DNA of 64,000 nucleotides from an uncultured Eubacteriales bacterium (lineage in GTDB: Bacteria > Bacillota > Clostridia > Christensenellales > CAG-138): the NCBI GenBank assembly GCA_900319345.1, contig ONNZ01000002.1, forward strand, positions 21,111 through 85,110, given 5' to 3'. The notes below the pieces were generated by a model, which searched no databases, was not told the DNA's origin, and saw only the letters and a program-made list of their open reading frames with translations. Both the position numbers and the translations under genes were made by a program. Position 1 is the first letter of the stretch; the number at the start of each line of letters is the position of its first letter. This document shows positions 27,937-57,989 of this stretch, piece after piece.

Positions 27937-28719
27937 TTACGTCAGTCGATCCTGGATGCGACTGTAAAGATCCATCTGCTCGAATCGGATAAAGGATACC
28001 CTTTCCGTAGACCCGGTGATCCTCAGGGACTCTCCCATGGACACCCGGCAGACCCGCTGGCCGTCCATGGCCGCCATGCCCTCGTCGTGCTCCACCAACT
28101 CCACCTGGCTGTCGCTGCGGACCACGATGGGCCGCACGTGCAGCTTATGGGGACAGATGGGCGTGATGACCATGGCGTCCAGCCCCTCCGGCACGATGGG
28201 TCCCCCCGCCGAAAGGTTGTAGCCCGTGGACCCGGTGGGCGTCGATACCATGACCCCGTCCGCCGATACCGTCCAGGCGCTCCTGCCGTCGATCCTGACG
28301 TCGATGTCCGTGACGCCGGAGAAGGAGAGCTTGTAGAGCACCGCGTCGTTCAAACACCGGTAGACCCGCCCCGTGCTGACCTGACAGTCCAGCATGTTGC
28401 GCTGCTCCAGCCGGTAGTCCCCGGCTTTGAGCCGCGGCAGGGCGGCTACGAATCCTTCCTCCGTCAGCTCCGTCAAAAACCCCACCCGGCCGTAGTGGAC
28501 GCCCAGGATCGGCATATGGGCGGCCATGGCCACCGGCACCTGCCGGATGATGGAGCCGTCGCCGCCGATGGCGATGACGACGCCGTCCTCCCCGGGATCG
28601 GGGGCACGCTCTTCCAGCTCAGCGCATAAAAAACCGTAGCCTGCCGCTGCATCCATCAGGCGCTTGCGGGCGTCGAATGTGGCCGGTTTTTTAGGATTCG
28701 CCGCAAAGAACAGGTACAA
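27937..28719 (-). CDS. nadK: NAD kinase
   Basis: GGDGS motif (AIGGDGSIIR). I chose the TTG at 28719 ((M)YLFFAANPKKP), which has GAGGA 6 nt upstream. The track's longer N-terminus contains a consensus promoter. Confidence 0.88.
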   Translation of the reverse strand: MYLFFAANPKKPATFDARKRLMDAAAGYGFLCAELEERAPDPGEDGVVIAIGGDGSIIRQVPVAMAAHMPILGVHYGRVGFLTELTEEGFVAALPRLKAGDYRLEQRNMLDCQVSTGRVYRCLNDAVLYKLSFSGVTDIDVRIDGRSAWTVSADGVMVSTPTGSTGYNLSAGGPIVPEGLDAMVITPICPHKLHVRPIVVRSDSQVELVEHDEGMAAMDGQRVCRVSMGESLRITGSTERVSFIRFEQMDLYSRIQDRLT

Positions 28720-28750
28720 AGCTTTATCCTCGGATGAATACTGCAGATGT

Positions 28751-28779
28751 ATTATACAGTATAGTTTCCGAAATTTCAA
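28751..28779 (-). promoter_or_regulatory. SigA promoter for nadK, between tlyA and nadK
   Basis: Minus strand: TTGAAA (28779..28774), 17 nt, TATAAT (28756..28751), with a TGt extended -10. Confidence 0.6.
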
Positions 28780-28798
28780 TACAAATATGAATAATTTT

Positions 28799-29620
28799 TT
28801 AACAATTTATGTGAAATTTATGACTGTCCGAGACGACTTGAGCCACTTTTTCCTCGAAATCCGTCGATGCCGCCGGGCTCGTCTCGCCTTCGTTCTGCAA
28901 AAACAGCAGAAACTCTATGTTTCCTTTGGGGCCAGTGATGGGCGAGAAGGAAAGGTCCTCCACCCGGTATCCGGCCTCCTCGGCATACCGGATTATGTTT
29001 ATACATACATCCCGATGAATAGACGCCTCCCGGACCACGCCGTTCTTGCCCACCTGGCCCCGGCCCGCCTCGAACTGGGGCTTGATGAGGGCCACCACCT
29101 GGCCCTCTATCTTCAGGCACGCTTTGAGAGGCGGCAGGATCAGCTTCAGGGAGATGAAGGACACGTCGATGGAGGCGAAGTCGAAGGGGCCGTCGAACCA
29201 GCCGGGCTCCATGAAGCGGGCGTTGCGCCGCTCCATGACCGTGACCCGGGGGTCGTTGCGAAGCTGCCAGGCCAGCTGGCCGTAGCCCACGTCCAGGGCG
29301 CAGACGTGGCTGGCCCCGTTCTGGAGCATGCAGTCCGTGAACCCGCCGGTGGACGCGCCCACGTCCAGGCACACCTTGTCCTGCAACGACAGGGGGAACA
29401 CCTTCAGGGCCTTGTCCAGCTTCAGACCGCCCCGGCTCACGAAGGGAACGGGGTCCTCGTGGAGGGTGACGGCGTCCTCGGGCCGCACCTCCTCCCCCGC
29501 CTTCTCCGCCTTTCGGCCGTTGACGAAGACCTCCCCGGCCATGATCATGGCCCGGGCCCTCTCCCGGGAGGGGGCTAAACCCGCCTCCACCATATGCACG
29601 TCCAACCGCTTCCTATCCAT
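28799..29620 (-). CDS. tlyA: TlyA-family rRNA (cytidine-2'-O)-methyltransferase
   Basis: S4-like N-terminus (MDRKRLDVHMVEAGLAPSRERARAMIMAGEVFVNG) plus an FtsJ-type methyltransferase domain (CLDVGASTGGFTDC). Confidence 0.92.
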   Translation of the reverse strand: MDRKRLDVHMVEAGLAPSRERARAMIMAGEVFVNGRKAEKAGEEVRPEDAVTLHEDPVPFVSRGGLKLDKALKVFPLSLQDKVCLDVGASTGGFTDCMLQNGASHVCALDVGYGQLAWQLRNDPRVTVMERRNARFMEPGWFDGPFDFASIDVSFISLKLILPPLKACLKIEGQVVALIKPQFEAGRGQVGKNGVVREASIHRDVCINIIRYAEEAGYRVEDLSFSPITGPKGNIEFLLFLQNEGETSPAASTDFEEKVAQVVSDSHKFHINC

Positions 29621-50347: not shown

Positions 50348-50438
50348 GCAGAGATGGCTGAGCTGGTCTAAGGCGCACGACTGGAAATCGTGTATACTAG
50401 GAATAGTATCGAGGGTTCGAATCCCTCTCTCTGCGCCA
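50348..50438 (+). tRNA. tRNA-Ser (anticodon GGA), long variable arm, CCA encoded
   Basis: gcagagatggctgagctggtctaaggcgcacgactGGAaatcgtgtatactaggaatagtatcgagggttcgaatccctctctctgcgcca. Confidence 0.9.
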
Positions 50439-50439
50439 C

Positions 50440-50477
50440 AAAAATGACACCCCAATTTGGGGTGTCATTTTTGTTTT
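50440..50477 (+). terminator. Rho-independent terminator after tRNA-Ser (hairpin 1)
   Basis: atgacacccc-aattt-ggggtgtcat followed by ttttgtttt. Confidence 0.85.
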
Positions 50478-50498
50478 GGCGCAGAGAGAGGGATTCGA
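50477..50498 (-). repeat. Exact inverted copy of the last 22 nt of tRNA-Ser
   Basis: tggcgcagagagagggattcga is the reverse complement of 50417..50438. Confidence 0.9.
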
Positions 50499-50511
50499 TG
50501 GGCGGGTCTTA

Positions 50512-50536
50512 GCAAAGGCCACAGTGCGGCCTTTGC
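50512..50536. other. Perfect 9-bp stem-loop
   Basis: gcaaaggcc-acagtgc-ggcctttgc. Confidence 0.7.
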
Positions 50537-50566
50537 CCCTGCCCTGCCCGAGGCCGCAGCCGAGAA

Positions 50567-50580
50567 GAATCCCTCTCTCT
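50567..50580 (+). repeat. Second direct copy (14 nt) of the tRNA-Ser T-arm/acceptor 3' segment
   Basis: gaatccctctctct is identical to 50419..50432. Confidence 0.75.
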
Positions 50581-50581
50581 C

Positions 50582-50618
50582 AAAAAGGGCACCCCCTTGC
50601 GGGGTGCCCATTTTGTTT
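50582..50618 (+). terminator. Terminator-like hairpin 2, a diverged copy of hairpin 1
   Basis: gggcacccc-cttgc-ggggtgccc followed by attttgttt. It shares the acccc...ggggtg core with hairpin 1. Confidence 0.6.
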
Positions 50619-50623
50619 ATTTA

Positions 50624-50640
50624 GCGCAGAGAGAGGGATT
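50624..50640 (-). repeat. Second inverted copy (17 nt) of the tRNA-Ser 3' end
   Basis: gcgcagagagagggatt is the reverse complement of 50420..50436. Confidence 0.8.
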
Positions 50641-50665: not shown

Positions 50666-52009
50666 TCATCTACCGCAAGCGGTCCCCCTTCCCCCGAGGG
50701 GAAAGGCATTTTCACGCTCCGGCAGCAGCAGAAACGCCACCGCCCACGCCGCTAAAACCACAAGGAACACCGCCTGAAGCGGCATTTTGGAAATGAGCTG
50801 TTCCATTTCATAGGGAGCGAGGTGCCCCATAACACTCTGTAAAAAATGGAGCAGGATGGGTATAAGAATGTTGTGGGAATGCAGATACATCGCCGCCATG
50901 GCGAGGCCGAACACACCCATGAACAGAAGAGAGGACTGATTCAATCCCAACAGTGTCGTTGCACCATAGACCCCGCCGCAAAGCAGGCCGTAAAGCAACC
51001 GCCGCTTTCCGCTCCGCTCCCCTTGCCGATAATACCCTTCCAGCAGGAGCGCAAATAGCAGCTCCGTGAAAAAGGCGTCGGTAAACTGCTGCCCCATAAG
51101 CTGTTCAATGATCAGGTTCCAGGGAATTTCTCTCCGCCATGCGGCCCAATAGTCTGCCGGTGTCCCGGTGAACAGCACCACGATCTCCACCAACAGAAAA
51201 ATGATCACGCCGCCGCCCGCCAACAGAGCAGGGCCGACATTTCGCGTGTGGACGATCTCGCGATAGCTGCCCTTGTCGAAATACTTCACTAAGATCCACA
51301 GTGTCACCAAGCCAAAACCAAGGCGCAACAGGATGTCCAGCAGCAGACGGGTCGCGGGCTCCTGAGCGAACCCCTGCGCCATATACTCGGCGCTCACGAA
51401 CCCCAGGCAGATCAGCACCGCCATCCAAAACCCGCCCCGGGGCCGCCAGCGATCCTGCCGCTGCTCCGCCATGCCCGCTTCCCATTCGGGGTCCATCTTT
51501 CGGATGACCTTGTCAAACACCCGGCTCTCTGCATAGGTCATCATGCGGTTATACAGCACCACATAGAAGGCCATCAGCAGGAGGCCAGCCGTAAACGTGA
51601 TGAGAAAGATGTTCACGCCTTTATACTTCAGGGCCAGGAGTATCACCAGCCAGCAGACAACGCAGCAAGCCATGGTGAACATATTGTCTTTGCGCCATTT
51701 GCGCTTGAAGAAGGCCAATCGTTCCTCGATGGTAAAGGGGCTTTCTGACAGGGCCGATTTTATATTCTCCTCCGCCCTTTCCCGATAGGTCTCTTCCGTG
51801 AGCCTTTCCCCACTCAGTATTTCATTGATGGAGACGCTGTACCGTTCGCTTAAGCGTTGCAGCATCTCCACCGGCGGCAAGTAAGTGCCCGTCTCCCACC
51901 GGGACACCGTCTTATTGGAAACGCCCAGGGATTCTCCCAGCTCCTCCTGAGTGAGGTCGTTTTCCTTTCGAAGCTCCGCTAAAAAGGCGCCAATGCGCGT
52001 TATGTCCAT
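50666..52009 (-). CDS. XRE-family HTH fused to a polytopic membrane region ending in a degenerate CPBP (CAAX-protease)-like domain
   Basis: 447 aa. N-terminus: MDITRIGAFLAELRKENDLTQEELGESLGVSNKTVSRWETGTYLPPVEMLQRLSERYSVSINEIL (HTH_3). Multiple TM helices follow. The C-terminus resembles CPBP motifs, but the key residues are changed: FTELLFALLLEGYY, VYGATT and ILLHFLQS. GC is lower than the flanks; I counted 29/60 in 51601..51660. Confidence 0.7.
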   Translation of the reverse strand: MDITRIGAFLAELRKENDLTQEELGESLGVSNKTVSRWETGTYLPPVEMLQRLSERYSVSINEILSGERLTEETYRERAEENIKSALSESPFTIEERLAFFKRKWRKDNMFTMACCVVCWLVILLALKYKGVNIFLITFTAGLLLMAFYVVLYNRMMTYAESRVFDKVIRKMDPEWEAGMAEQRQDRWRPRGGFWMAVLICLGFVSAEYMAQGFAQEPATRLLLDILLRLGFGLVTLWILVKYFDKGSYREIVHTRNVGPALLAGGGVIIFLLVEIVVLFTGTPADYWAAWRREIPWNLIIEQLMGQQFTDAFFTELLFALLLEGYYRQGERSGKRRLLYGLLCGGVYGATTLLGLNQSSLLFMGVFGLAMAAMYLHSHNILIPILLHFLQSVMGHLAPYEMEQLISKMPLQAVFLVVLAAWAVAFLLLPERENAFPLGGRGTACGR

Positions 52010-52087
52010 TCGTCATTCCTCCTGTTTGGTGCCTTTCAATATACCACGGAACCCCCGCTTTGTCCTCCCCATAAACAGCGAATCCAT

Positions 52088-52110
52088 GAAAAAGCGCCCC
52101 GAAAGGCGCT
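52088..52110 (-). terminator. Rho-independent terminator, apparently the original terminator of the THUMP methyltransferase gene
   Basis: Minus strand: AGCGCC-tttcgg-GGCGCT followed by TTTTTCATGG. Confidence 0.75.
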
Positions 52111-52120
52111 TTGGACTGGT

Positions 52121-52192
52121 CTATTCTCCCTTCCCCCTCACCCGCTCCGGGAAATACTGATAGAAGGTGCAGGGCATGCCGCCTCGCCTCAT
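52121..52192 (-). pseudogene. Displaced 3'-terminal remnant of the THUMP methyltransferase gene
   Basis: It translates as MRRGGMPCTFYQYFPERVRGKGE*. The live gene ends ...SNGGLPCTFYQYFPERVREI*. The remnant begins immediately after the TAA of the small AT-rich ORF. Confidence 0.75.
52135..52183 (-). repeat. Direct repeat R1 (49 nt), partner of 52611..52659
   Basis: An ungapped hand alignment gives 39/49 identical. Of the 10 differences, 9 are synonymous in the methyltransferase frame. Confidence 0.8.
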
Positions 52193-52606
52193 TTAGTGGA
52201 ACAGTATGAGCAAAAGCTGCTGCACTTTGAAGGCAATATTATTATAACGGGACAGAAAATAGCTATAACAAGATGCGCCAATACGTTCGTCTCCTGCATA
52301 CTCGTATATAATGTAACGCGTATCCTCCATACAGCAGATAGCAGAATCATTTGTCCATCGATAGGCCTTCCGATAACGTTCAATGCGTTTTGGCTCACTG
52401 ACTGTGCCGATCCATTCGCTTTCGCGTGTATCATCAGAATACGTGTAGATTTCAAGTCGATCTATTTCTTCAGGCAATGGTTCGCTATACAGCGGCCCAG
52501 AATCAAGGCCAAATTCATTTGCGAACCAAAGAAGCAGCCCGGAGAACAGAACGAGCAGCACGATAAATGCCTCCATTATAGGAGATAATTGCTTTTTGGT
52601 TTTCAT
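52193..52606 (-). CDS. AT-rich small membrane-anchored hypothetical protein (137 aa)
   Basis: The ATG at 52606 overlaps the methyltransferase stop as ATGA. N-terminus: MKTKKQLSPIMEAFIVLLVLFSGLLLWFANEF, followed by about 100 aa of soluble sequence with 4 Cys. I counted 22/60 G+C in 52201..52260, against 46/60 in 53001..53060. Confidence 0.65.
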   Translation of the reverse strand: MKTKKQLSPIMEAFIVLLVLFSGLLLWFANEFGLDSGPLYSEPLPEEIDRLEIYTYSDDTRESEWIGTVSEPKRIERYRKAYRWTNDSAICCMEDTRYIIYEYAGDERIGASCYSYFLSRYNNIAFKVQQLLLILFH

Positions 52607-53721
52607 ATCTCCCTCACCCTCTCGGGAAAGTATTGATAAAACGTGCACGGCAGGCCCCCGTTGCTGAGCTTTCTCCGCTTGTCCGCCCGCTTGCCGTAGA
52701 CCTTCTCGAAGTTGTCCATGCCGGAGATGATGCCAATGTTCCAGCCGGGGAGGCCGTCGAAGACGCGGCGCATGTCCCGATAGAGGTCCGCCGCCTCCTT
52801 GCCCGTGAGCATCCGCTCCCCGTAGGGCGGGTTGCAGAGCAGGAGCCCCTTCTCGTAGTCCGTCTTCAGCTTCTGGACCGGCCGCACCTCCCAATGGACC
52901 TCCACCCCCGCCTTCTCGGCGTGGCGGCGGGCCACGGCCACGGAGCGCTCGTCGATATCGTAGCCGAAGATGGGGAGCCTGTCGTGGCGCTCCTCGTCCC
53001 GGGCCTGCTCCCGGGCCTTCGGGAAGACGCGGGCGTCCAGGAAGGGCCAGTCCTCCGCGGCGAAGCGCCGGTTCAGGGAGGGGGCCTTGTTATTGCCGAT
53101 CATGGCCGCCTCGATGGGCATGGTGCCGCTGCCGCACATGGGGTCCATAAAGGGCGTGTCCGGCCAATAACGGCTCAGCAAGATGAGCCCAGCGCCAAGG
53201 GTCTCGCTCAGCGGCGCGGCCACGTTATAGGTCCGATACCCCCGGCGAGAGAGGCCCGCCCCGCAGCAATCCAGGGCCACGGTGACCTTGTCCCGCAGGA
53301 GCCCCACCTCCACGATGACCTCCGCCCCGTCCTCCGGGACGCGGTCCGTGCGATAGGCGGCCTTCAGGTTCTCCACGATGGCCTTCTTGGCGATGCTCTG
53401 GCAGTCGGACACGGAGAACAGGGTGCTCTTGGCGCTCTTGCCGTTCACGTGGATGCGGCTGTGGGGGGTCAGATAGGGCTTCCAGTCCAGGGCCTTCACG
53501 CCCTCGAACAGGGCTTCGAAGGTGGTGGCTTCGAAGGAGCCCACCTCCAGCAGCAGCCGTTCCGCCGTGCGCAGGTACAGGAGGGCCCGGGCCATGTCCT
53601 CATAGGAGCCGGTGAAGCTCACGTTGGCGTCCGCGTTCTGCACGTCGGATATATCCATCTTTTTGAGCTGGAAGGCGGTGACCGACTCCAACCCCAGCTT
53701 GGTGGTGGCGATGAATCTCAT
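52603..53721 (-). CDS. THUMP-domain class I SAM-dependent RNA methyltransferase (RlmL/YpsC-like)
   Basis: I trimmed the start to the ATG at 53721 (MRFIATTKLGLESVTAFQLKKM...). It has a THUMP N-terminus, DPMCGSGT and NPPYGERM; 372 aa. Confidence 0.88.
   Translation of the reverse strand: MRFIATTKLGLESVTAFQLKKMDISDVQNADANVSFTGSYEDMARALLYLRTAERLLLEVGSFEATTFEALFEGVKALDWKPYLTPHSRIHVNGKSAKSTLFSVSDCQSIAKKAIVENLKAAYRTDRVPEDGAEVIVEVGLLRDKVTVALDCCGAGLSRRGYRTYNVAAPLSETLGAGLILLSRYWPDTPFMDPMCGSGTMPIEAAMIGNNKAPSLNRRFAAEDWPFLDARVFPKAREQARDEERHDRLPIFGYDIDERSVAVARRHAEKAGVEVHWEVRPVQKLKTDYEKGLLLCNPPYGERMLTGKEAADLYRDMRRVFDGLPGWNIGIISGMDNFEKVYGKRADKRRKLSNGGLPCTFYQYFPERVREI
52611..52659 (-). repeat. Direct repeat R2 (49 nt), forming the current 3' end of the methyltransferase gene
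   Basis: See R1. It encodes GGLPCTFYQYFPERVR. Confidence 0.8.
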
Positions 53722-55430
53722 TCCCGGCTCCCCTCCTCCAGTGTGGTAAAGATCATCTTCAGGGCGTTGTTCAGCCGCCGCGCGGTGATGTCGAAGGCCT
53801 CGCACAGGGCTTCCTCGGTGATCTGCTGCTCCAGGAAATGGACCGCCATGCATACGAAGGCGGCGGTGAAAGCGTCCTCCTGGGTAGGCGAGATGCGGCG
53901 GTACTTGCCCTTCTGGGCCAGGACGAAGTAGTAGAAGGCCCGCTGGGCGAACTCCGCCGTCTTCTCCGGGCAGTCGATCTCCTCGGCGCAGCGGGCAAGC
54001 CGCTGGAAGATCTTCATGTAGGGCTTGGGCAGGTCCGCGGGGAGCGTGGCGTGGATGACCTCCCCGAACTGCCAGAGGCCGTTGTAGAACATGGCGTGGG
54101 GCTCCGCCCCGTCGAAGGTGTGCAAGGCGCCGAAGGCGATCTGCTTGTCCTCGTCGGACTGGTCGGCCCGCAGCAGGAACGCGCGCAGCAGCCGCTCCGC
54201 CTCCCTGTCCCCCGCCACCACCAGGATGGTGATGATGCCGTGCTTGTCCGGGGCCAGGGGCGAAACGAGGGCCCAGCCCACCAGGTCCCGAAACTCCCCG
54301 TCCTCCGCCCAGCGTTTGGCCAGGTATTCGGGGCCCTTCGCGAAGGTTTCCCCCATCCGGCGCAGCCGTTCGGCGGCGATCCGATAGGGCACGTCGTACT
54401 GGATGGTCCAGCCCTTGCCGCCCCTTTTGGGGTCCGGCTCCGCCTGAACGGCGTCGAGATACCAAGCGGCCACGGTGTCGTGGGGGTCCATCTCCACGAT
54501 CCGCCGATACAGGTCCGCGGCCTCCCTGGCCTTGCCCAGCATATACTTCGTATACCCCAGCTCGTGGAGGGTCAGGGGATCGTAGGGGATGATCTTATAG
54601 AGGGTCTCCCCGCACTCCTCCACCCGCACGTAGTCCTCCAGCTCCAGGAGCATCACGTTCAGGTTCCCCAGCTCCTCCGTGGTGCCGTCCACCGGGATGG
54701 GGATGGAGTTCAATATCTCCCGAGCCTCCCGCTTCTTGCCCTCGCCCCGCTTCAGCAGGGCCAGCAGGCACTTGGCGCGGACGTAGTGGCTGTCCTCCTT
54801 GAGGATGTTGAAGAGCCGCTGCTCGCAGGCCTCGTACTCCTCCAAACAGTACTCCGACAGGGCGATCTCCATCTGAAGCCACAGGGACCGGGGGTACCGT
54901 TCCTCCAGGTCCAAGAGGTGCCGCAGGGCCTCCCGATCCCGGCCGGACACGTGGAGGGTCTTGGCGTAGTGGATGTGGGCGATCAAATCCAGGTCCTCCC
55001 CCTCATCGAGGCCCAGCTGCCAGTTCATCTCCGGGGTATCGTCCATCATGTCGAGATAGTCCGCGGCGTCGGCGGCATAGGCTCCCTCCGGGTCCGCCTT
55101 GAGGTAGTACTCGAGGCACATGCGGGCGGGGCCGAACTCCTCCATGGCGATGAAGTTGCTGGCCATGCCGAAAAGCCCGTCGGGAGGCAGGGCCTCCAGC
55201 CGCCCCAGACCCATGAGCACGGCGATGCTCTCCTCGAACCGCTGCATCCGGTTCATGATCTCCGCCAGGGCGATGGTGATCTCCGGGTTGTCCGGGTCCT
55301 TCTCGTGGGCGAGGCGCAGATGGGACAGGGCGCGGATCAGGTTCCCCGCCTCCGCCTGACGGCGGCCGGTGCGCAGATAGAACCCCGCCCCCTGGTCGAA
55401 GGACAGTATGTTGTCCCGCTCCTGCTTCAC
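53718..55430 (-). CDS. TPR-repeat protein
   Basis: About 570 aa with several TPR-like helical repeats (ALSHLRLAHEKDPDNPEITIALAEIMNRMQRFEESI...). I chose the GTG at 55430, which has AGGAG 8 nt upstream and overlaps the hslO stop as GTGA. The longer track ORF overlaps hslO. Confidence 0.7.
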   Translation of the reverse strand: MKQERDNILSFDQGAGFYLRTGRRQAEAGNLIRALSHLRLAHEKDPDNPEITIALAEIMNRMQRFEESIAVLMGLGRLEALPPDGLFGMASNFIAMEEFGPARMCLEYYLKADPEGAYAADAADYLDMMDDTPEMNWQLGLDEGEDLDLIAHIHYAKTLHVSGRDREALRHLLDLEERYPRSLWLQMEIALSEYCLEEYEACEQRLFNILKEDSHYVRAKCLLALLKRGEGKKREAREILNSIPIPVDGTTEELGNLNVMLLELEDYVRVEECGETLYKIIPYDPLTLHELGYTKYMLGKAREAADLYRRIVEMDPHDTVAAWYLDAVQAEPDPKRGGKGWTIQYDVPYRIAAERLRRMGETFAKGPEYLAKRWAEDGEFRDLVGWALVSPLAPDKHGIITILVVAGDREAERLLRAFLLRADQSDEDKQIAFGALHTFDGAEPHAMFYNGLWQFGEVIHATLPADLPKPYMKIFQRLARCAEEIDCPEKTAEFAQRAFYYFVLAQKGKYRRISPTQEDAFTAAFVCMAVHFLEQQITEEALCEAFDITARRLNNALKMIFTTLEEGSRE

Positions 55431-56323
55431 GCCTGGGCTCCTTCCCGGAGGATGGCCAACAGCTCCGCCTTGGTGAAGGTATACCTGCTGTTGCAGAAAT
55501 GACAGCTGAGCTCCGCCTGGCCGTCCTCCTCGATGATCTCGGAAAGCTCCTCCCGGCCAAGGCTCATGAGGGCCCGCTCCATGCGCTCCCGGCTGCAATC
55601 GCACCGGTAGGCGGGACGAAGCTCCTCCGTGAAGGACACGTCCCCCTCCGGGAACAGGGAGAGGACCACGTCCCGCAAGCCTTCGCCTTCGGAGAGACGC
55701 TCTGTGAGATGGGGGATGGCCTCGGCCTTAGTCATGACGTAATCCACGTGCTCGGCGGGACAGTCGGGCAGGGGCTGAATGAGCAGGCCGCCGGCGCCCA
55801 GGACCTGGCCCGACAGGGGCTCCAGCCGGACGCCCAGGTACACCAGGCTGGGCTGCTGCTCAGAGGCGGTGAAATACTCAGCGAAATCCTCCGCCACCTC
55901 GCCGGAAATGAGGTGGCACATACCCACGTAGGGCTCCTTGAGGGACAGGTCCCGGACCACGGTAAGCTTGCCGTTTTGGCCCACGTAGCCGCCCACGTCC
56001 AGCTTGCCGTTGGGCTTAGGGGGCAGCTCGCAGGCCGGGTCCCCGGTGCAACCCTTCACGAAGGGGCCCTTGCGGCCCACGCAAACGAGGTTCCCCCCAG
56101 GGCCGCCTCCGGAAAGGATGGCGGAGACAGAGTCCGTGTCGTTCTTCAGCTGCCCGGCCATCATGGCTACCATGAGAAGCTCCCGGCCCAACGCGGCGGT
56201 GGCCGTGCGGCTGAGGGCATGGATGCGCTGGGCCTCCGTCACCAGTTCCCGACCGGTGATGGCGGCGAAGCGGATGGTATCGTGTTTCAAAAGTCCCTGC
56301 AGGATCGTATCGTTCATGTTCAT
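55427..56323 (-). CDS. hslO: Redox-regulated chaperone Hsp33
   Basis: 298 aa with the C-terminal zinc centre YRCDCSRERM ... LSCHFCNSRY. Confidence 0.93.
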   Translation of the reverse strand: MNMNDTILQGLLKHDTIRFAAITGRELVTEAQRIHALSRTATAALGRELLMVAMMAGQLKNDTDSVSAILSGGGPGGNLVCVGRKGPFVKGCTGDPACELPPKPNGKLDVGGYVGQNGKLTVVRDLSLKEPYVGMCHLISGEVAEDFAEYFTASEQQPSLVYLGVRLEPLSGQVLGAGGLLIQPLPDCPAEHVDYVMTKAEAIPHLTERLSEGEGLRDVVLSLFPEGDVSFTEELRPAYRCDCSRERMERALMSLGREELSEIIEEDGQAELSCHFCNSRYTFTKAELLAILREGAQA

Positions 56324-57057
56324 TCCTTTCGCGCGGTGAATTGAAGCCGTTCCGCCCTATCCGTCGGCGGGTTCCTGGTGAAGGCTTCGTACACCTGTAT
56401 GTCATGGAAGCCGCTGCTTGCGAGGGCGGCCCTCAGCTCTTCCTCGGTATAGGCCCGCTGGCTGTGGTGCTCCTCGAAGCGGGCGTAGCCTGTCCCCTGC
56501 TTCAAAAAGCCGGTGAGGAGCATGTCCACCCGGCCGAGGCGGGGATGGTAGGTGTTCTCCCAGATGTAGGCCCAGTCCGGGCCGGTGGCGGCGAAGGTGT
56601 TGTCGCCCAAAACGGCGGACAGCTTGTAGGCGGAGGACACGTCGAAGAGGAGCATGCCGCCGGGCTTCAGGGCCTTCCAGGCGGATTGAAAGAAGTCCTC
56701 GACCCCGTCCATAAGATAGTTCACCCCGTCGCAAGCTGCGACCACCGCGTCCACGGGCTTGTGGAGGGCGATGCGCCGCATGTCCTGGCAGACGAAGGGC
56801 AAAAACCGCAGCCCTGCGTCGAGGGCCTTCTGCCGAGCCCCCATGAGCATGTCCTCGGACAGGTCCGCCCCGGTCATGGCATAGCCCATGCGGGCCAGGC
56901 GCACCGTCAAACTCCCGGTGCCGCAGGCGCATTCGAGGACGCTTTTCGCCCCCGCCTCCCTCAGAAAGCCGTCGATATAGCTGGCCCAGCCGTCGTAGTC
57001 CACGTCCGCCATCATGCGGTCGTAGCCCGCGGCAAAGGCGCTGTACGCTTCGTTCAT
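56320..57057 (-). CDS. Class I SAM-dependent methyltransferase
   Basis: VLECACGTGSLTVRLARMG (motif I); 245 aa. Confidence 0.85.
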   Translation of the reverse strand: MNEAYSAFAAGYDRMMADVDYDGWASYIDGFLREAGAKSVLECACGTGSLTVRLARMGYAMTGADLSEDMLMGARQKALDAGLRFLPFVCQDMRRIALHKPVDAVVAACDGVNYLMDGVEDFFQSAWKALKPGGMLLFDVSSAYKLSAVLGDNTFAATGPDWAYIWENTYHPRLGRVDMLLTGFLKQGTGYARFEEHHSQRAYTEEELRAALASSGFHDIQVYEAFTRNPPTDRAERLQFTARKE

Positions 57058-57989
57058 ATCAACCCATTCTCCAGGTCCTGGGCGTATTCCACCAGCCGGG
57101 TGAGCCGGTGGTTCATGCCCGATTTTTTGATATCCGCCATGTCGGCCAGCTCCTGCAAGCTGGCGTCCGGGTAGTTGAGCCGAAGCTCCGCCGCCTCCTT
57201 CAGGGCCTTGGGCAGCCGCTGGAAGTGGCCGTGGCTCAGAATGGTGTTCACCGCCTGCTGCTGCTTGACGGAGGCGGCCACCAGCTTATCCAGGTTGGCG
57301 TACTCGCAGTTGGTGGTCCGGTTCACGTAGTTCCTGGTCTCCTTCTCCGCCCGCACGTTCTCCAAATCCAGCGCCGCGATGTTGGAGCCGATGAGGGCCA
57401 GAAAGCCGGTGACGCTGTCCCCCTCCTTCAGGTACACCACGTACCGGTTCCGGCGCAGGGCGTATCGGGCGTTGAGCCCGTACCCGTTCAGCAGGTCGCA
57501 CAGGCCCGCGGCGAAGCTCTCCGCCCGGCAGAGGATCTCCACGCTGTACTCCCCCTGGGGATCGGAGCAGCTGCCCGCCCCCAAGAAGCACCCCCGCACG
57601 AAGGCGCGCCGGGCCTCGTCCTCCCGGACCAGGTCCTCCGGCAGCCGGGACAGCAGATGGACGCCCTCCTCGTCCAAGACCATGACACCCGTGGCGGACA
57701 GCATCTCCCCCGCCTTCGGTCCGCTCATGTTCACCACGTAGAGGGGGGCCTTCCGATGCTCCCGCACCCGCTCCTCCATCTCCACGTCCAGCTCGTAGAG
57801 GGACGTGCCCAGGGCGGCGATATGCCGGCCCACCTCCCGATTCTCCGTGCGGTAGCTGACTGCCTTGCGGCGGCCCAGCTTCAAATTCCCGCAAGCAAAG
57901 GTGAGGCCGGCCAGTTCGGCCAGCTTCACACCTGCGTCCCGCACCCGGATGCGGACCACCTCGTCCTTGATGTTGGAAGCAAAGCTCAT
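57054..57989 (-). CDS. whiA: DNA-binding protein WhiA
   Basis: 311 aa with LAGLIDADG-like repeats and a C-terminal HTH. It follows rapZ, as in other Firmicutes. Confidence 0.92.
   Translation of the reverse strand: MSFASNIKDEVVRIRVRDAGVKLAELAGLTFACGNLKLGRRKAVSYRTENREVGRHIAALGTSLYELDVEMEERVREHRKAPLYVVNMSGPKAGEMLSATGVMVLDEEGVHLLSRLPEDLVREDEARRAFVRGCFLGAGSCSDPQGEYSVEILCRAESFAAGLCDLLNGYGLNARYALRRNRYVVYLKEGDSVTGFLALIGSNIAALDLENVRAEKETRNYVNRTTNCEYANLDKLVAASVKQQQAVNTILSHGHFQRLPKALKEAAELRLNYPDASLQELADMADIKKSGMNHRLTRLVEYAQDLENGLI

Follow-up and report, generated by a model that had tools for sequence, protein, structure and literature searches.

Integrative elements that insert at gene 3′ ends carry a surrogate gene end; an example is the ICESt1/ICESt3 family, which targets fda. 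Intervals between core genes can also be hotspots of chromosomal integration, as reportedly described by Oliveira and colleagues in Nat Commun in 2017. Homology-facilitated illegitimate recombination is credited, in a passage of PMC5361080, to de Vries and Wackernagel (2002) and Prudhomme et al. (2002), and a section of PMC3240628 reports that single crossovers with circular molecules in E. coli left duplications of 109–950 bp of the homologous segment. The locus described here lies in a 64-kb stretch of DNA from an uncultured member of the Clostridia (the window, meaning the whole stretch that was analyzed). In it an AT-rich gene for a 137-residue protein stands directly behind the gene for a THUMP methyltransferase and is followed by a second copy of the methyltransferase gene end. 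The favored explanation, to which we give a probability of roughly 0.62, is that the conserved gene served as the anchor for a recombinase-independent capture on the border of a hypervariable segment, and that homologous recombination later spread the insert.

All parts of this arrangement lie on the minus strand. The methyltransferase gene (52603..53721) ends in ...GGLPCTFYQYFPERVREI before its stop codon, which overlaps the ATG of the small open reading frame (ORF; 52193..52606, 137 amino acids) as ATGA. Nine nucleotides of filler, ATGAGGCGA (52184..52192), separate the stop codon of this cargo ORF from the displaced distal copy of the gene end, R1 (52132..52183, allele type CTTCTATCAGTATTTCCCGGAGCGG), a dead remnant. 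The proximal copy, R2 (52608..52659, type GTTTTATCA(A/G)TACTTTCCCGAGAG), was delimited by a repeat search and is part of the live methyltransferase ORF. Read in frame, the distal copy encodes GGMPCTFYQYFPERVRGKGE followed by a stop; together with the preceding ATGAGGCGA it makes up a 23-codon ORF (52121..52192) with no evident function. The coordinates and features that an initial annotation had assigned to the locus are all present, including the clean terminator behind the distal copy: an 8-bp GC-rich hairpin and a run of U lie at ~52088..52112, although a simple pattern scan missed them.

That annotation had reported a repeat of 49 nt, and the figures are reproduced. Positions 52611..52659 and 52135..52183 align without gaps at 39/49 identity; nine of the 10 differences are synonymous in the methyltransferase frame, and the tenth exchanges leucine for methionine. 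The repeat search extends the match to 52 nt (52608-52659 against 52132-52183, 41/52 or 79% identical, spacing 476). The similarity exceeds that of shuffled controls, for which 300 shuffles of the downstream 1 kb gave a best match of 28/49 and a mean of 22.7, and no other 49-mer in the window resembles the gene end at 30/49 or better on either strand. The unusual composition claimed for the ORF between the copies is likewise borne out. It is the lowest-GC stretch of 414 nt in the window (0.430, against 0.633 overall); G+C content runs from 0.415 to 0.455 along the ORF and from 0.65 to 0.72 in the methyltransferase gene, and at third codon positions (GC3) the values are 0.43 and 0.92.

A protein search with the methyltransferase gave 41 loci in species-representative genomes, the close ones being rumen and gut metagenome-assembled genomes (MAGs) of uncultured Clostridia. 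In five rumen MAGs (L002, L003, L005, L008, and L021) the methyltransferase gene leads directly into the same terminator and then into the same downstream gene, which encodes an HTH-CAAX protein. The gene ends of these five read ...ERVREK, ...ERVREKHE, ...ERVRERGE, or ...ERIER before the stop codon, and all five relatives share a conserved GATTCGCTGTTTATGGGG motif between the terminator and the HTH-CAAX gene. The empty sites that had been predicted from the window thus exist, and the AT-rich single gene is a true insertion. The earlier view is also supported that the insertion kept a live methyltransferase end in the proximal position and displaced a dead end, with the terminator, to the distal one.

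The origin of the live end is another matter. The closest genome, L001, which is 96% identical to the window across 5.1 kb upstream, is free of the insert, and R2 (GTTTTATCAATACTTTCCCGAGAGGGTGAG) is the same as its gene end until the last three codons. Ends of the R2 type occur in L001, L021, L003, and L063 without the insert and without an R1-like remnant, a finding that the initial annotation had itself listed as contrary to its reading. The R1-type end (CTTCTATCAGTATTTCCCGGAGCGG) is found in insert-free L005 and L008, and Gly-Gly-Met (GGM-type) ends like that of R1 occur naturally in L063, L064, P0030, P0033, and P0035. Both end types are thus native alleles of the species complex. Because both are present in insert-free relatives, the AT-rich DNA did not carry the proximal end with it, contrary to the proposal that incoming DNA had supplied a surrogate, and the foreign part is only ~52184..52606. 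The change in the methyltransferase is limited to a variable tail (...REI, as against ...REK, ...RERGE, or ...RGKGE) that also varies among natural alleles. The species representatives of GTDB contain no match to the exact insert junction or to the right arm, and no intact allele ending in ...GGGAAGGGAGAATAG was found among them.

The insert itself can be followed through many assemblies. The exact 137-residue protein occurs in 152 blocks of the assembly collection and stands behind this methyltransferase gene at every place read; the 20 insert contigs that were read come from independently assembled samples and several studies and are up to 368 kb long. The right junction, TAA-ATGAGGCGA-GGCGGCATGCC(C/T)TGCAC, is identical in all contigs in which it was read (the window and L051-L062); the filler ATGAGGCGA shows no variation among these haplotypes and forms, with the first bases of R1, a unique joint. 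Beyond it four downstream contexts are seen. In type A (the window, L052-55, L057, L059, L061, and L062) R1, the terminator, and the HTH-CAAX gene follow. In type B (L051) the distal end is of the L001/L063 type and overlaps a gene for a CAAX-only protein; L056 is the same with a 47-nt deletion, which makes an in-frame fusion between the methyltransferase remnant's ATG and the downstream CAAX-only gene (L056 5430-6242). Type C (L058) has an end reading ...ERFRTKEE before the stop codon and a different downstream region, and type D (L060) has a truncated end with its own terminator. A single right junction in spite of four contexts fits a single origin of the insert.

The insert is also far more uniform than its surroundings. 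Its 422 nt are 100% identical between the window and L051, L056, L057, and L059, with methyltransferase flanks at 95-97%; in L060 the insert is 98.8% identical and the flank ~90%. By our own arithmetic, the probability of zero changes in 422 nt at 3.5% divergence is ~3e-7. Identity of the insert across flanks that have diverged by 3-5% indicates recent lateral movement between lineages. Right of TGCAC, R2 differs from the window by one to three single-nucleotide polymorphisms in 38 nt (L051, L058, L059, and L060), compared with zero to five in the 422 nt of the insert, and the proximal end is thus exchanging with host alleles.

The interval from the 3′ end of the methyltransferase gene to the 3′ end of a tRNA-Ser gene is a hypervariable segment, its content differing from strain to strain. 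Only five of the 11 closest species-level relatives (L001-L009, L011, and L021) show the clean empty arrangement; the others have other contents. In L004 there is no gene between the methyltransferase and tRNA-Ser genes. In L001 (5116-5919) and L063 (2096-2872) a CAAX-only gene that lacks the HTH half has an ATG overlapping the methyltransferase stop (TAATG), and its product corresponds to residues 180-446 of the window's HTH-CAAX protein (50% identity). In L064 and L065 (3625-5460) a gene for a 510-residue carboxylesterase, with its own promoter region and terminator, lies between the methyltransferase terminator and the HTH-CAAX gene.

One of these relatives repeats the architecture of the window. 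In L007 (5104-6400) the methyltransferase gene is followed by a ~1-kb peptidase gene, a piece of the repeat that adjoins tRNA-Ser, a methyltransferase remnant, the terminator, and the HTH-CAAX gene. The remnant comprises ~205 nt of the methyltransferase 3′ end (212 in BLAST) and is decayed and frameshifted, with a 4-nt deletion. L006 (5105-6130) has the methyltransferase and peptidase genes but no remnant; the peptidase-like gene of both genomes bears a DmpA/P1-type label from its sequence. L007 thus records an independent insertion at the same locus, with its junction elsewhere in the methyltransferase gene. The pattern expected of anchored illegitimate recombination, a conserved anchor without a specific site and with variable endpoints, is therefore seen in two events, which left remnants of 52 nt and ~205 nt.

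In the capture favored here, ~0.43 kb of foreign AT-rich DNA with one promoterless gene would have been acquired once, directly behind the last methyltransferase codons. The cell's own recombination or repair would suffice, anchored in conserved methyltransferase sequence, and a dedicated integrase would be unnecessary. Homology-facilitated illegitimate recombination would fit, as would a template switch or a single crossover involving a circularized fragment, and each would duplicate the part of the anchor that lies between two joints, here 52 nt. The molecular route is one that we infer, as are the coupling of expression and any selective benefit of the gene. The outcome would be a methyltransferase intact except for its variable C-terminal tail, and a second gene end that is a dead remnant.

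The newcomer would use the promoter and terminator of the operon. Its ATGA overlap matches the ATGA style of the upstream operon genes, and the operon terminator, now 0.5 kb from the live methyltransferase end, would serve the inserted ORF too. Transcription is presumably with the operon, and translation presumably by coupling through ATGA, with the purine-rich last codons of the methyltransferase as a possible ribosome-binding site. Homologous recombination would then have carried the insert between rumen strains and species at 3-10% divergence from one another. Recombination tracts halting at the heterologous borders of the insert would have re-assorted the flanks, and for this reason the two copies would now be different natural alleles with sharp borders.

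Several observations weigh against this explanation. The block identical to the window (52632..52167 in L051 and 52644..52167 in L056; 466-478 nt) stops on the right exactly after TGCAC in both contigs and is near the size of a hypothetical excised circle. Plain homologous import of the insert leaves arms of no more than 29 and 17 nt, and so needs either later erosion or another mechanism. Right of TGCAC, the R2 sequences of all filled haplotypes fall into a single allele family whereas those of R1 vary, as would be expected of an element-borne surrogate end. No insert-free site is seen in the same HTH-CAAX background: of the contigs encoding the identical HTH-CAAX protein, 21 were read, and every one has the insert (10 places shown). 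Finally, the candidate microhomologies at the joints, GGAGA on the left and GGCG on the right, are conjecture, and a donor of the AT-rich ORF was not found.

One alternative, which is improbable, is a one-step capture with true target duplication, in which a fragment was ligated into a staggered break or introduced by two template switches. It is a sub-variant of anchored capture and differs from it solely in lacking a homologous anchor. As host it supposes a type-B strain, in which the CAAX-only gene follows the methyltransferase gene, with a GGM-type allele; the two 52-nt copies would have been identical at first, to be overwritten later by recombination in the flanks. The copies of L051 are indeed nearly identical across the 35 nt right of TGCAC (one mismatch), but those of the window differ at eight of the 35 positions, and the copies in the window, L058, and L060 are different alleles. 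The left joint falls in the last methyltransferase codon, at a purine-rich, Shine-Dalgarno-like GGAGA that also stands upstream of a cargo homologue in L042 (AAGGAGAT), and the right joint falls inside a GGCG repeat; these microhomologies remain conjectural, however, in a case where the donor sequence was not found, and a stagger of 52 nt would be unusual.

Site-specific integration was the cause suggested in the initial annotation, and the hallmarks of mobile elements were examined in turn. A direct repeat of the target (52 nt, 79%) and empty sites (five) are both present. The insert, however, consists of one ORF, and the earlier statement that no recombinase is visible holds for the part of the window that was annotated: none is found among the called genes within ±5 kb (precomputed Pfam matches on identical contigs). 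The repeat search found no terminal inverted repeats at the insert. Single-stranded DNA folds of the two junction regions are no more stable than shuffled sequences (z = +1.36 and -0.42), so that no attC-like fold is apparent. A transposon, insertion sequence, or MITE was rejected as a candidate because there are no terminal inverted repeats and no transposase and the 52-nt duplication is not identical (79%). An integron cassette was rejected for want of an attC-like fold, although the insert does read as a promoterless single ORF that would use an external promoter (no promoter-like site, the ATGA overlap, and no terminator of its own). Origin from a prophage, plasmid, or integrative and conjugative element (ICE) found no support in the phage, plasmid, and IMG/VR collections: the insert and repeats have no DNA match among INPHARED phages or PLSDB plasmids, the patterns of the methyltransferase end and the right arm have none in IMG/VR, and the small protein is without a viral relative.

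A more specific form of this idea is a minimal site-specific cassette of ~476 bp, resembling a micro-CIME or an integron cassette, that has no integrase of its own and is moved by a recombinase encoded elsewhere. In such a cassette the small ORF would lie between a surrogate methyltransferase end and a right arm of 26 nt; after excision as a circle, the cassette would recombine with the 3′ end of the methyltransferase gene at TGCAC or close to it. The predicted circle junction joins ...GGCGGCATGCCCTGCAC to GTTTTATCAATAC..., or in a longer form ...ATGAGGCGAGGCGGCATGCCCTGCAC to GTTTTATCA(A/G)TACTTTCCCGAG...ATATGAAAAC. In its favor are the invariant right junction, where host-specific sequence takes over immediately behind TGCAC (L051 and L056) or no more than 6 nt from it (L058 and L060); the 466-478-nt block held in common with L051 and L056, which is bounded by two TGCAC motifs; the complete identity of the insert in backgrounds 3-5% diverged; and the contrast between a distal end that varies and a proximal end confined to a single allele family. 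Decayed, integrase-less, cis-mobilizable elements, including "microCIMEs," are moreover documented in streptococci (PMC7563491).

Other observations weigh against this scheme. The absence of a recombinase within ±5 kb, and of inverted repeats or attC-like folds at the joints, has been described above. The apparent core, GGCATGCCCTGCAC, is ordinary coding sequence of insert-free GGM-type alleles (L063 and L064), and because it is native there it needs no att site. The boundary in L056 is a 47-nt deletion and not an integration joint. The only assembled sequence with the predicted circle (attP) junction is the distal copy of L051, which reads as a natural allele too. Reuse of a core is not evident: the same right arm with another cargo occurs nowhere in 185,579 species genomes or IMG/VR, a second methyltransferase-end copy within 4 kb is found in none of 39 species representatives, and, most tellingly, L007 has the same architecture with a different junction. 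The supposed element-borne end is, furthermore, more polymorphic than the cargo.

These points, together with the native R2 alleles, argue against site-specific integration as the cause. A cassette mobilized in trans, one of the three origins that the initial annotation had offered, is accordingly rated as doubtful; another of the three, recombination with a divergent allele, comes closest to the capture and spread favored here. The last alternative, that the small ORF is ancestral and was deleted in relatives or is an artefact of metagenome assembly, draws some support from the clean empty arrangement being confined to five of the 11 closest relatives but is effectively refuted, since a dead copy of the upstream gene's end would not follow an ancestral gene, GC3 differs (0.43 against 0.92), the insert is 100% identical across backgrounds 3-5% diverged, and the exact protein recurs in 152 blocks, the 20 contigs read being independent assemblies from several studies.

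The cargo is predicted to be a membrane-anchored protein. Two AlphaFold2 models (pLDDT 87, pTM 0.75-0.80) show a membrane helix at residues 9-32, in agreement with the N-terminal transmembrane anchor that had been proposed for it, and an alpha/beta domain of ~100 residues. Pfam, NCBIfam, PHROGs, and PADLOC gave no match, and Foldseek searches of the models against the PDB gave none either (best E 0.12, query-normalized TM-scores at most 0.37). The family is rare, with 17 representatives at E <= 0.001 among 1.84 billion and one species-representative genome. Residues I75, W84, T96, Y121, N123, F126, and Q130 are invariant, and D49, C91, C92, E94, and L133 nearly so; C91, C92, and E94 lie in an AICCDE motif. 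A rare family with a confidently predicted fold and no structural relative provides a minor lead.

Relatives of the cargo outside this locus live in other settings. The closer homologues (P0002 and P0004, 52-63% identical) are encoded behind a VanZ-like gene, with a terminator of their own; P0005 (44% identical) has a different gene context. In L042-L045, L049, and L050, from other Clostridia, a VanZ-like (PF04892) gene always precedes the homologue, whose G+C content is below that of its contig. The suggestion that such homologues might always be flanked by duplicated target ends is not borne out, as none is so flanked; they have the VanZ-like gene and their own terminator instead. The ~100-residue domain is repeated three times in P0009 (1429 residues) and six times in P0017 (2406 residues), the latter ending in a CHU_C type IX secretion sorting domain. 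Its repetition in such very large proteins suggests an extracellular module, and from these sequences an extracytoplasmic role is likely for the cargo protein.

The methyltransferase has the domains expected of a THUMP and UPF0020-type class I SAM methyltransferase and, judged by its Pfam matches, would resemble the N-terminal half of RlmL (THUMP, UPF0020, and RlmL_1st; PF02926, 2.1e-14; PF01170, 1.6e-46; PF22020, 3.1e-15); NCBIfam matches to RlmK/L and Trm14 both fall under the cut-off. Its gene is the last native one of a housekeeping operon that encodes WhiA, a UbiE-type methyltransferase, Hsp33, a TPR protein, and the THUMP methyltransferase, a layout read from the called genes of contigs identical to the window. 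The five genes (52603-57700; L051 1-5004) are co-directional, and successive starts and stops overlap by 4 nt or are 2 nt apart.

On the other side of the insertion, the HTH-CAAX gene (50666..52009, minus strand) encodes an Xre-type HTH_3 domain and a CAAX/Rce1-like membrane protease domain, has a promoter-like site at 52066..52038, and comes next in type-A haplotypes, whether these are empty or filled. The far border of the hypervariable segment is the gene for tRNA-Ser(GGA) (50348..50438, plus strand; ARAGORN and Rfam tRNA), which is convergent with the methyltransferase gene; besides this tRNA, Rfam gives no other RNA element across 49.8-54 kb. At this border (50348-50640) hairpins and copies of the tRNA 3′ end come after the tRNA gene: first a perfect 18-bp hairpin, next an inverted copy (28 nt, 93%) and a direct one of 14 nt, and finally another hairpin with another inverted copy behind it. 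This array is 98.8% identical in L004. The repeats could be stacked att-like remnants or a duplicated module of tRNA end plus terminator. Elsewhere in the window, only one stretch apart from the insert has a G+C content below 0.48 (28594-29044, where the 5′ part of an NAD-kinase-like gene meets the 3′ part of one for a TlyA-like methyltransferase). It was considered as a similar architecture and rejected, being only a gene junction with no repeat or insertion signature.

The locus offers a clean natural case of a housekeeping operon that has gained a foreign promoterless gene at its end with no mobile-element machinery. The joint falls among the final codons of the conserved methyltransferase gene, which a 52-nt duplicate keeps whole, and the newcomer would be expressed by translational coupling. 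With empty, filled, and re-assorted sites in many rumen metagenomes, the locus may be a useful small model in which to date and trace the gene-specific spread that homologous recombination brings about in an uncultured gut lineage. Current understanding is unchanged unless the cassette proposal is right. In that event the insert would be the smallest gene-end-targeting mobile cassette and a form of integron-like gene addition to the end of a housekeeping operon in Clostridia.

Among described processes, illegitimate recombination and single crossover are alike in placing foreign DNA beside a conserved anchor with no element-encoded recombinase and no specific site, and single crossover also leaves part of the homologous segment duplicated on both sides of the insert. 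The present case differs in being read from population data in uncultured rumen Clostridia, in a duplication of just 52 nt, and in an anchor gene that is kept intact and to which the new product would be translationally coupled. Polymorphic-toxin loci (arrays of type VI secretion effector-immunity genes, Rhs, and contact-dependent inhibition), as outlined in a passage of PMC5361080, share the conserved 5′ anchor, the module that brings a new end with cargo, the displacement of the old end downstream as an orphan, and repeated events at one locus. Unlike their alternative toxin tips, the displaced piece here is 52 nt of an equivalent gene end, and the cargo has no toxin or immunity character (no PADLOC or Pfam match).

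The 3′-end integrative elements, CIMEs, and microCIMEs (PMC7563491) resemble the locus in having a flanking direct repeat, a functional target, empty sites, and no internal mobility genes. They differ in that here no genome examined has an integrase-bearing partner at the site, the repeat consists of native coding sequence found in both forms in insert-free relatives, and an independent insertion used another junction. Integron cassettes are similar as single promoterless ORFs of ~0.5 kb that use an upstream promoter, but here there is no attC-like fold and no integron integrase or attI nearby, and the insertion lies inside coding sequence that it duplicates. With integration hotspots the locus shares an interval between conserved features, the methyltransferase and tRNA-Ser genes, that holds strain-variable accessory genes mostly without mobility genes and is turned over by recombination in conserved flanks. 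What sets it apart from them is that one joint is inside a core gene and has left a datable scar, the 52-nt remnant. Taken together, the evidence points to ordinary recombinase-independent gene capture at a hotspot and not to a new integration system.

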